A stretch of 32,000 nt of DNA from Ectothiorhodospiraceae bacterium WFHF3C12 (GCA_013519935.1 JACDUA010000001.1:91982-123981); one strand, 5' to 3'. Counted from the stretch's first letter, positions 4,192-23,764 are shown. The notes: generated by a model not told the origin, from the sequence alone. Made by a program: numbers and translations.

Positions 4192-5991
4192 CTAGTAGAC
4201 CCGGGCCTTGGGCGGAATGGCCTCGATTTCGTCGGTCAAGGTGTTCATGTGCACGGGCCGGTAGTCGATCTTTACCTGCCCCTTCTGATCCATCCAGCTG
4301 ATGGTGTGCTTCATCCAGTTCTCGTCGTCACGGTCCGTGTAATCCTCGCGGGCGTGGGCCCCCCGGCTCTCGGTGCGGTTACGCGCCGACTCCACGGACG
4401 TGATGGCGTTACCCAGAAGGTTCTCCAGCTCCAGGGTCTCCACCAGATCCGTGTTCCAGATCAGGCCGCGGTCGGCCACCTTGACGTCGGCGAACGCCTC
4501 GTGGACCTGCTGCATCCGCGTGCAGCCCTCTTCCAGGGTCTCGCCGGTGCGGAACACCGCCGCGTAGTTCTGCATGGTGCGCTGCATCCGATCGCGGATA
4601 TCCGCCGTGGGCGTGGAACCGTTGGCGTTGCGCAGCCGTTCCAGGCGCTCCAGCGAGAAATCCGCGGAATCCCCGGGCAGCGGCTTGTGATTGTCCCCCG
4701 CCTCGTCGACCAGTTCCGCGGCCCGAATGGCCGCCGCACGACCGAAGACCACCAGGTCCAGCAGCGAATTCGAACCGAGACGGTTGGCGCCGTGAACGGA
4801 AACACAGGCGGCTTCGCCAATGGCCATCAGGCCCGGGACCACCGCATCCGGGTCGCCGTCGCGCAGCGTGACGACCTCGCCCAGGTAGTTGGTCGGAATG
4901 CCGCCCATGTTGTAGTGCACCGTGGGCAGCACCGGAATGGGCTCCTTGGTAACGTCCACGCCGGCGAAGATGCGCGCGGTCTCGGCAATGCCGGGCAGCC
5001 GCTCGTTGATGACCTCGGGACCCAGGTGCTCGAGATGCAGGTGAATGTGATCCTGCTCCGGCCCGACGCCCCGTCCCTCGCGAATCTCGATGGTCATCGA
5101 ACGGCTGACCACGTCGCGCGAGGCCAAATCCTTGGCGTTGGGGGCATAGCGCTCCATGAAACGCTCGCCCTCGGAGTTGGTCAGGTAACCCCCCTCGCCG
5201 CGCACGCCCTCGGTGATCAGACAGCCGGCGCCGTACACCCCCGTGGGATGGAACTGGATGAACTCCATGTCCTGAAGCGGCAGCCCGGCGCGCAGTACCA
5301 TGCCGGCGCCGTCGCCGGTGCAGGTGTGGGCCGACGTGCAGGAGAAATACGTGCGGCCGTAACCGCCGGTGGCGAGGACCACCTGATGGGCGCGGAAGCG
5401 GTGAATCCGGCCCGTGGCCAGCTCCAGGGCAATGACGCCGCGGCAGGCACCCTCCTCGTCCATGATGAGATCCAGGGCGAAGAACTCGATGAAGAACTCG
5501 GCCTGATGCTTCAGCGACTGCTGGTAGAGCGTGTGCAGGATAGCGTGGCCCGTGCGGTCCGCGGCGGCGCAGGTGCGCTGGGCGCGGCCTTCGCCGAAGT
5601 GCGTGGTCATGCCGCCGAATGGCCGCTGGTAGATCTTGCCTTCGTCGGTACGGGAGAACGGCACGCCGTAGTGCTCCAGCTCGATGATCGCCGGAATGGC
5701 CTCCCGGCACATGTACTCGATGGCGTCCTGGTCGCCGAGCCAGTCGGAGCCCTTGACGGTGTCGTACATGTGCCAGCGCCAGTCGTCCTCGCCCATGTTG
5801 CCGAGGGCGGCGCTGACGCCGCCCTGGGCCGCCACGGTATGGCTGCGGGTCGGGAAGACCTTCGTCACGCAGGCGGTCTTCAGCCCCTTCTCCGCCATGC
5901 CGAACGTAGCACGGAGGCCTGCGCCGCCCGCGCCCACGACCACGACGTCGTAAGTGTGATCAATAATCTCGTAGTCGCCCGACATGGACAT
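4192..5991 (-). CDS. sdhA: Succinate dehydrogenase flavoprotein subunit
   Basis: The 599-aa ORF has the FAD fold [12 protein letters not shown], the covalent-FAD histidine context ([10 protein letters not shown]), and HPTG, RGEGG and [13 protein letters not shown]. The ATG at 5991 follows a GGAGG embedded in the sdhD 3' end. Confidence 0.97.
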
Positions 5992-19252: not shown

Positions 19253-20293
<1,041 letters not shown>

Positions 20294-20299
20294 GGGGGG

Positions 20300-20901
20300 T
20301 ATTGCTTTTTTCGAGCTTCCTTTCTCCCGGATTCCGTTCCGGCCTCATCCCTGTCCTGACGCTCCGCACCTCCCTGGCGCATGGTCAGGTTCATTCCCTG
20401 AAAAACGGCTCTGTCCTTTCCCTGCCTTGCCGGGCGTCCTGCCGGCGTCGCGCGAATTCCGTCGCGCATGCCATCCCGGGCCAGTTCCTGGCGTGTGAAC
20501 TCCCTTCACACCCGCCGTCATCCCGACGGCGTTGTCCTTCCCGTCGGACGGCCGTGTTCCTCAAGCCGCCGATCTCAGCGCGCCGACCCGGTGAGGGTCT
20601 CTGATCCGGAGACCCACACACCTCCTGTGCCTTATCCCTGGGCCAGACTTCCAGTCGGGCTGATCCTCGCCCGGCGCGCTTCCCTTTTCCTGCGGCGCGC
20701 CTTCCGGGCGGCCGCGGAGATCGTTAGTATTTCCCGGTCCTTCGGACTGAAATCCCTTCGCTTACGACGCCGCTCCTTCGCGCCGGCCCGCCGTCCCTGA
20801 ACCATCCGCCCCCGAATCCTGTAGAGGGGGTGGGCATCCTTGCCCTCGCTGGGGACAGCGATTCCTTCCTTGATCCGTCCATGTCCTTGCGTCCGTGCTT
20901 G
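20300..20901 (-). ncRNA. Candidate large CsrB/RsmB-like RNA that sequesters CsrA/RsmA (boundaries approximate)
   Basis: The gap has no credible ORF. By manual count the minus strand carries about 40 GGA motifs, against about 8 on the + strand. Many sit in loops of short GC-clamped hairpins, for example GGGC-AAGGAU-GCCC at 20832-20845 and GUGUGAA-GGGAG-UUCACAC at 20493-20511. A perfect GacA-type palindrome and a plausible promoter lie just upstream. The 5' end is inferred from the -10 element. The 3' end is unresolved: a U5 run at 20405-20401 is one option, but motifs continue to about 20310. Confidence 0.65.
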
Positions 20902-20907
20902 GAAACA

Positions 20908-20936
20908 AGATTAGTGATTTCGGAGAGAGCCGTCAT
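20908..20936 (-). promoter_or_regulatory. Candidate sigma-70 promoter of the GGA-rich RNA
   Basis: The minus strand reads ATGACG (20936-20931), a 17-nt spacer, then TAATCT (20913-20908). This sits between the palindrome at 20957-20974 and the first GGA hairpins. Confidence 0.35.
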
Positions 20937-20956
20937 GGTCATCTTTCGGAAGGGCT

Positions 20957-20974
20957 TGTAAGCGAATTCTTACA
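20957..20974. promoter_or_regulatory. GacA/UvrY-type upstream activating sequence (TGTAAG-N6-CTTACA)
   Basis: The exact sequence TGTAAGCGAATTCTTACA is a perfect 18-bp palindrome. It matches the published Gac box consensus found upstream of rsmX/Y/Z and csrB genes. Confidence 0.65.
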
Positions 20975-21075
20975 TCTGCGTAGGGCGGGCGTGATCGGGC
21001 CACGGCCAAATGGCCTGAGGAAGGTCGGGGCCCGGTAACGCAACAGGGCAGATCACGGGCCGGGCCCAATGACGT

Positions 21076-23764
<2,689 letters not shown>

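Follow-up and report, generated by a model that had tools for sequence, protein, structure and literature searches.

A candidate gene for a CsrA/RsmA-sequestering sponge RNA between cysB and serS in a bacterium of the Chromatiales

The cysB-serS gap and its GGA array

In the window, by which we mean the whole 32-kb stretch of DNA that was analyzed, cysB and serS are neighbors. The encoded CysB has 100% identity with the protein of Ectothiorhodospiraceae bacterium WFHF3C12, a member of the Gammaproteobacteria, Chromatiales. Both genes were assigned by NCBIfam equivalog models: cysB occupies 19313-20293 on the plus strand and serS occupies 21076-22431 on the minus strand, with rarA and ftsK downstream of serS. 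The gap between them (20294-21075) is 782 nt long and holds no credible open reading frame (ORF), as a sequence-only reading of this DNA had already stated; a Pfam search with the six ORFs of the gap returned no match above noise. Moreover, the GGA motifs described below show no codon-frame bias within the array (p 0.26), and the indels that distinguish the gap from that of the closest relative, L081, do not come in triplets. A coding reading was rejected on these grounds, namely six ORFs belonging to no Pfam family and motifs without frame bias. A repeat-array reading (REP, CRISPR-like or tandem) was also rejected, as the region has just short two-copy matches and one 22-nt tandem. Searches of the region by blastn (word 11) found no match in all 5,426 complete E. 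coli genomes and none among the PLSDB plasmids, so that it is neither detectably related to csrB or csrC nor detectably plasmid-borne or mobile.

Kulkarni et al. (2006; PMC1488887) described genes for CsrA-regulating small RNAs (sRNAs) by five criteria: an intergenic location, a high density of AGGA/ARGGA, a rho-independent terminator, GGA motifs placed in loops, and a conserved upstream UvrY/GacA site. The gap is itself the intergenic location, and the density of motifs is found on its minus strand. There, the body of the predicted RNA (20294-20900) carries 42 GGA motifs with a median spacing of ~14 nt, many of them in the loops of GC-clamped hairpins; in 31 of the 42, position -1 or -2 is an A, which gives the form A(N)GGA. 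Seen from the plus strand, the interval 20310-20900 has 42 TCC against 6 GGA. An earlier manual count had given ~42 and ~8. For a minus-strand RNA this amounts to 42 GGA in ~610 nt, or 6.9 per 100 nt, and the maximum for ~600-nt windows on either strand of the remaining 32 kb is 24 (mean 14.5, SD 3.3). Compared with 1000 dinucleotide-preserving shuffles of the minus strand, in which the count is 26.1 ± 3.3, GGA is enriched with a z of 4.8 and is the most over-represented of the 64 trinucleotides, and the enrichment seen by eye thus survives a control for dinucleotide composition. The same shuffles give z values of 7.3 for A.GGA (23 copies) and 5.1 for AGGA (17 copies). The motifs span exactly 20318-20894, and the 175 nt that lead from there up to serS (20901-21075) have none.

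These motifs are preferentially displayed rather than buried in stems. According to ViennaRNA, the mean unpaired probability is 0.65 for GGA and 0.41 for all bases, a difference of 0.245, whereas shuffles give 0.078 ± 0.051. Of the 42 GGA, 13 lie wholly within hairpin loops of the minimum-energy fold, against 2.9 ± 1.4 in shuffles, and the picture is unchanged when the base-pair span is limited to 40 or 60 nt. GGA motifs in loops and free regions, the fourth criterion of Kulkarni et al. (PMC1488887), are accordingly a computed property of this strand. Indeed, all ten hairpins listed in the sequence-only reading fold as described there, with energies of -6.3 to -11.6 kcal/mol. Overall fold stability is little above that of shuffles (z -1.6). 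Assignment of the strand by folding energy or by G-U pairs was tried and proved uninformative, as the two strands fold about equally (-253 versus -247 kcal/mol).

As a positive control, E. coli CsrB (369 nt) was passed through the identical scripts. It has 22 GGA (6.0 per 100 nt), with an unpaired probability of 0.80 versus 0.44 and with 9 motifs in loops versus 1.5 ± 1.3 in shuffles. Since these values are similar to those of the candidate, the latter resembles a genuine CsrA sponge by these criteria. The proposal that it is both larger and more motif-dense than E. coli CsrB holds for length and for the total number of sites; in density the candidate is just slightly above CsrB (6.9 versus 6.0).

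The control region and the ends of the predicted RNA

Between serS and the array lies a perfect GacA/UvrY palindrome, TGTAAG-CGAATT-CTTACA (20957-20974), which, like the candidate promoter next to it, was absent from the earlier reading of the locus. It is the sole match to TGTAAG-N6-CTTACA in the window, even when two mismatches are allowed (0.06 expected), and its center is ~65 bp upstream of the predicted transcription start. Box and promoter are oriented for leftward (minus-strand) transcription into the array. In L081 the box reads TGTAAG-CAATTT-CTTACA, with both half-sites perfect and two of the six spacer bases different from the window, and a conserved upstream UvrY/GacA site of the kind listed by Kulkarni et al. 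(PMC1488887) is present at this locus.

The putative promoter is sigma-70-like. Its candidate -35 hexamer, ATGACG (20931-20936, minus strand), is part of a 23-nt block, CTTCCGAAAGATGACCATGACGG (20930-20952), that is identical in L081, and its candidate -10 hexamer, TAATCT (20908-20913, minus strand), follows at a spacing of 17 nt. The -10 has counterparts in L081 (TAAGAT) and in two metagenomic loci discussed below, L101 (TATGCT) and L105 (TAGATT). The distance from box to -10 is 43 nt in the window and L081 and 44-45 nt in L101 and L105. Both candidate hexamers are weak, and a consensus promoter scan found no hexamers at 9 of 12. A weak match to consensus is usual among activator-dependent promoters, and a promoter under the threshold of the scanner is what would be expected of one. 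Judged from the position of the -10, transcription should start at about A20900 (20898-20902, minus strand). The GGA array begins 6-7 nt past the -10; its first motif is at 20894-20892, with none upstream.

For the 3' end, a terminator scan found no canonical terminator within the cysB-serS gap. The only terminator-like element that it returned on the minus strand is a hairpin inside the 3' end of the cysB coding sequence (20276-20235; -27.4 kcal/mol), in which a 13-bp stem, GCGGGUCAAGCUC/GAGCUUGGCCCGC, is followed by UCUUCUUUGG, a modest U tract. This candidate intrinsic terminator is kept in L081, where a C-to-U change leaves the pairing intact, and L105 has the same hairpin sequence; moreover, the conserved 3' block of the array, described below, reaches the cysB stop codon. 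If the hairpin is used, the RNA would be ~660 nt long and would cover the final ~57 nt of cysB in antisense. Antisense hairpins are also found within the final ~50 nt of cysB in many relatives (L002, L004 and L005 among them), including relatives without the array and cases in which the serS stop codon is 15-90 nt away. Because these array-less relatives carry the hairpin at the same position, it is probably the ancestral serS terminator, with the sRNA gene placed between serS and the hairpin. Four of the five features of Kulkarni et al. (2006; PMC1488887) are thus found at the locus; for the terminator, the candidate is this hairpin inside cysB, similar to hairpins of relatives that have no array. 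A U5 run at 20401-20405, which had been weighed previously as a possible 3' end, lies in a segment that is missing from the orthologue L081. It is therefore an unlikely terminator, and the hairpin at 20276-20235 is the better candidate.

Conservation and distribution downstream of cysB

The closest relative, with a CysB 91% identical to that of the window, is represented by one JGI metagenome contig and three further assemblies (L081-L084); there are only two clear orthologues of the array. The cysB-serS gap of L081 is 975 nt long and has the perfect GacA box noted above. When the two gaps are aligned, the serS-proximal spacer is 55% identical, with L081 ~400 nt longer, whereas the stretch from the box to the predicted start is 80% identical, includes the 23-nt identical block, and keeps the position of the -10. 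Conservation thus starts at the box. Within the RNA, a 5' block of ~77 nt (20824-20900, minus strand) is 91% identical to L081 and has 7 GGA in each sequence, including the hairpin GGGC-AAGGAU-GCCC. A 3' block of ~62 nt (20294-20355, minus strand) is 87% identical and has 5 GGA in each. The hairpin of the latter block, CCGG-AACGGAAU-CCGG in the window, is CCGG-AAGGGAUG-CCGG in L081, so that the GGA of the loop is kept and its neighbors are changed. The middle (20356-20823, minus strand) evolves fast: its 468 nt correspond to 344 nt in L081 at 50% identity, with 136 gap columns in runs that are not multiples of three. Nevertheless, the density of GGA in the middle is 6.2 per 100 nt in the window and 6.4 in L081.

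The L081 RNA as a whole (484 nt) has 34 GGA (z 4.1), of which 11 are in loops versus 2.2 ± 1.3 in shuffles. An orthologous gap therefore keeps both the enrichment and the loop placement of the motif despite the turnover of sequence, as the sequence-only reading had suggested should be looked for. No trinucleotide is better conserved between these RNAs than GGA (48% versus 21% for the others, p 4e-4), and in the middle segment its conservation is 31% versus 8%, both comparisons being possibly inflated because aligners anchor on abundant motifs. The overall pattern, with an equal GGA density across a middle only 50% identical, is what would be expected of selection on the number and presentation of motifs rather than on sequence. 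The conserved 20-mer GCGAGGGCAAGGATGCCCAC had 13 matches in a scan of JGI metagenomes, of which 12 were chance occurrences in unrelated DNA and one was the known contig. In the interval from the serS stop to the GacA box, L081 has ~400 nt (4400-4799) of GC-rich, hairpin-rich DNA that is absent from the window; it includes a terminator-like hairpin, AGCCCGGC-UUU-GCCGGGCU, and could be a serS terminator plus a REP-like insertion.

Synteny of cysB and serS is kept in Nitrococcus, Halorhodospira, Aquisalimonadaceae and others (CysB 75-82%), and in most of these Ectothiorhodospiraceae-like relatives the two genes are just 15-190 nt apart. The view that the array is unique to a clade with CysB more than 90% identical was considered, and it was softened by shorter GGA-rich stretches in three metagenomic loci, L101, L102 and L105 (CysB 80-83%). 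In each of these, ~300 nt directly downstream of cysB are rich in GGA on the minus strand, with 13-14 GGA versus 1-7 TCC, although the GGA counts alone are not significant (z 0.9-2.3). GGA is unpaired with a probability of 0.58-0.69, against 0.33-0.38 for all bases, and 4 GGA are in loops versus ~0.8 expected. In L101 (1149-1529, minus strand), where the neighbor is serS, a GacA-like palindrome, TGTAGGCGTGGGCTTACA, is 44-45 nt from a TAnnnT -10. In L105 (4982-5551, minus strand), where the neighbor is surE, a 19-nt variant of the GacA-like palindrome is found at the same distance from a TAnnnT -10. By blastn, the stretches of L101, L102 and L105 have no similarity to the window RNA. Given this and the non-significant counts, they are probable, not proven, smaller relatives of it. 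If they are true relatives, the element would be linked to cysB and would vary from ~300 to ~610 nt.

Some further features of these and other loci were recorded. The GGA-rich stretch of L102 (2228-2541, minus strand) contains two ~100-nt copies (GGGTNCCAGGGAA...GGAGACTCGGGCCTC), and this internal duplication suggests that such RNAs may lengthen as modules are duplicated in tandem. The stretch is closed by a canonical terminator, GAGGGGGCAGGGAGCCCCCUC followed by U7, that has a GGA in its loop. In L001 (5119-5772) and L108 (5148-5750), the cysB-serS gap is filled by a minus-strand ORF of ~200-217 aa, and there is no RNA array; for the product of the L108 ORF there is no Pfam match on record. 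In Pseudomonas thermotolerans (L043 7041-7340, plus strand), ~2 kb downstream of cysB, one strand has 19 GGA in 300 nt. This stretch is overlapped by ORFs, has no Rfam match, and is probably coding.

A candidate Csr/Rsm sponge, its rivals and its known counterparts

We propose that the minus strand from ~20900 to 20294 encodes a sponge RNA that sequesters CsrA/RsmA and that probably reaches the candidate terminator at 20276-20235 in cysB, and we put the probability of this reading at roughly 0.8. The sequence-only reading had offered a CsrB/RsmB-like sponge as a candidate, and the GGA enrichment, the placement of GGA in loops and the persistence of both in a relative support it. It had also recognized no identity to any named family member, in agreement with Rfam: at gathering thresholds, Rfam 15 gave no match to Csr/Rsm or any other family over the whole window, which places the RNA outside the CsrB/RsmB family as modeled (RF00018). 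At E<=10, the region 20200-21150 gave six chance matches to unrelated families and none to Csr/Rsm. L081 was negative as well, in a run in which RF00018 scored 380 bits on E. coli csrB. These results fit an unannotated RNA, and the candidate would be a new member of the Csr/Rsm sponge class, unrelated in sequence to the others; that is, a familiar kind of regulator in what appears to be a new, fast-evolving, lineage-specific form.

In the mechanism that we envision, phosphorylated GacA (a UvrY-type response regulator) would bind the palindrome at 20957-20974, centered near -65, and would activate the weak sigma-70 promoter (ATGACG, 17 nt, TAATCT). The resulting RNA of ~610-660 nt would display its 42 GGA, many of them as A(N)GGA in short GC-clamped hairpin loops or single-stranded linkers. 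As each CsrA dimer would bridge two sites, one RNA could titrate up to ~20 dimers, and this titration would relieve the repression or activation of mRNA targets by CsrA. Of the components of this scheme, the motif array with its loop bias, the box and the pattern of conservation come from computation on the sequences, and transcription, the start and end of the transcript, its dependence on GacA and its binding by CsrA are predicted.

The main rival is read-through from serS, according to which the array would belong to the serS mRNA, mainly as a long untranslated 3' tail, and would not be an independent sRNA; titration of CsrA would then follow serS expression or 3'-UTR processing, not GacA. 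The gene serS is indeed directly upstream on the same strand, and the 100 nt from its stop codon to the box (20975-21075) fold as a long hairpin with imperfect pairing (arms 20990-21001 and 21046-21057) that lacks a U tract, so that no canonical serS terminator precedes the array. In addition, in the relatives with gaps of 15-90 nt the hairpin at the 3' end of cysB appears to act as the serS terminator, which suggests that insertion of the array separated serS from its terminator. Read-through is opposed by what lies ahead of the array, namely a perfect GacA box and a conserved promoter block. It is exactly from that box on that the sequence is conserved, while the serS-proximal spacer is only 55% identical and differs by ~400 nt in length; GGA motifs are found only past the predicted start; L081 has its terminator-like hairpin between serS and the box; and in L105 the neighbor is surE, not serS. 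We regard a serS tail as quite unlikely.

It is similarly improbable that a GGA-rich RNA is made but serves another role, either by binding another RNA-binding protein or by antisense pairing with the 3' end of cysB. Such a role would be in keeping with the results for csrA, which was not found by tblastn in the 32-kb window or in the loci of the relatives; a CsrA protein search matched only Halomonadaceae and similar taxa, and the source organism was not among the matches. At the level of the family, csrA has been reported in Thioalkalivibrio (PMC8092127). Use of the terminator at 20276-20235 would create the antisense overlap with the last ~57 nt of cysB, and in the cases seen the element is always linked to cysB, with a partner on the other side that varies. 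However, A(N)GGA in loops, together with the motif density, the spacing and the GacA box, is the published signature of a CsrA sponge (PMC1488887, PMC8523701, PMC3171408). E. coli CsrB gave the same outcome in identical tests, and an antisense function would need no 42 GGA.

Least likely of all is that the plus strand is the functional one, as a UCC-rich 3' untranslated region of cysB, or that the gap is a non-functional, compositionally skewed spacer: the strands do fold about equally, and transcription of cysB enters the region with no cysB terminator evident near the stop codon, but the position and conservation of box and promoter suit leftward transcription, we know of no function for UCC loop arrays, a neutral spacer would not hold its GGA density through 50% turnover or favor the conservation of GGA, and the adjoining unconstrained spacer is ~55% identical and without GGA.

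For the sponge reading, several of the observations can be joined into a bolder account, which we consider doubtful. The RNA would be the largest Csr/Rsm sponge yet proposed (~660 nt, 42 GGA, ~20 CsrA dimers) and would represent an unrecognized, cysB-linked, GacA-driven lineage in halophilic Ectothiorhodospiraceae-like bacteria. It would change in size by gain and loss of modules (~300, 485 and 610 nt), would terminate inside the convergent cysB, and would act on cysB by antisense or transcriptional interference. If this were true, Gac/Csr signaling would be coupled to the cys regulon through cysB, the master regulator of sulfur assimilation. Otherwise, the RNA's possible overlap with this gene is of secondary and speculative interest.

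The Gac/BarA pathway, which sets lifestyle switches in Gammaproteobacteria, has the Csr/Rsm sponges as its output. As the sequences of these sponges lack conservation from group to group, annotation and Rfam overlook them. The locus offers a concrete Csr sRNA candidate and a candidate GacA-regulated promoter for Ectothiorhodospiraceae-like halophiles. It also displays a mode of evolution in which the ends and the promoter are fixed, the interior is turned over and the density of motifs stays constant, and it may serve as a training example for sRNA finders based on motif density.

Among known systems, the candidate resembles the CsrB/RsmB family (RF00018; E. coli CsrB, 369 nt, and Pectobacterium RsmB) in being long and multi-hairpin, in presenting GGA in loops and linkers at ~6-7 per 100 nt, and in being preceded by an 18-bp UvrY/GacA palindrome. 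It differs from that family in having no sequence or covariance-model similarity to it and no clean terminator inside the gap. Relative to E. coli CsrB, it is ~1.7 times longer and has about twice as many GGA, and its box is centered near -65 rather than at about -182 (the csrB box starts 191 nt upstream). The GacA-dependent RsmX, RsmY and RsmZ of Pseudomonas are ~110-130 nt long and have 5-8 GGA. With these it shares an upstream activating sequence, TGTAAGN6CTTACA, and GGA hairpin loops, which in Pseudomonas titrate RsmA/E; unlike them, it is about five times longer, and it matches no Rfam Rsm model. In the Pseudomonas genes the box is close to the promoter (PMC2375449).

The candidate was found by the same signature as the predicted CsrB and CsrC of Marinomonas mediterranea and CsrB1/2 of Shewanella and Vibrio, namely a GacA box and many ANGGA/AGGA in loops, in an intergenic location and with a sequence that is not conserved between genera (PMC8523701, PMC3171408, PMC1488887). 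Those RNAs come from Gammaproteobacteria of other orders, and no homology to the window RNA is detectable; they are supported by RNA-seq or Northern blots and end in a clear rho-independent terminator, whereas the window RNA is predicted from sequence. Neither the sequence nor the copy number of Csr/Rsm sRNA genes is conserved (PMC8523701), and the absence of Rfam and blastn matches fits that observation. Moreover, the count for the predicted CsrC of Marinomonas covered an interval of 655 nt (PMC8523701), so the length of the window RNA is unusual, not unprecedented.
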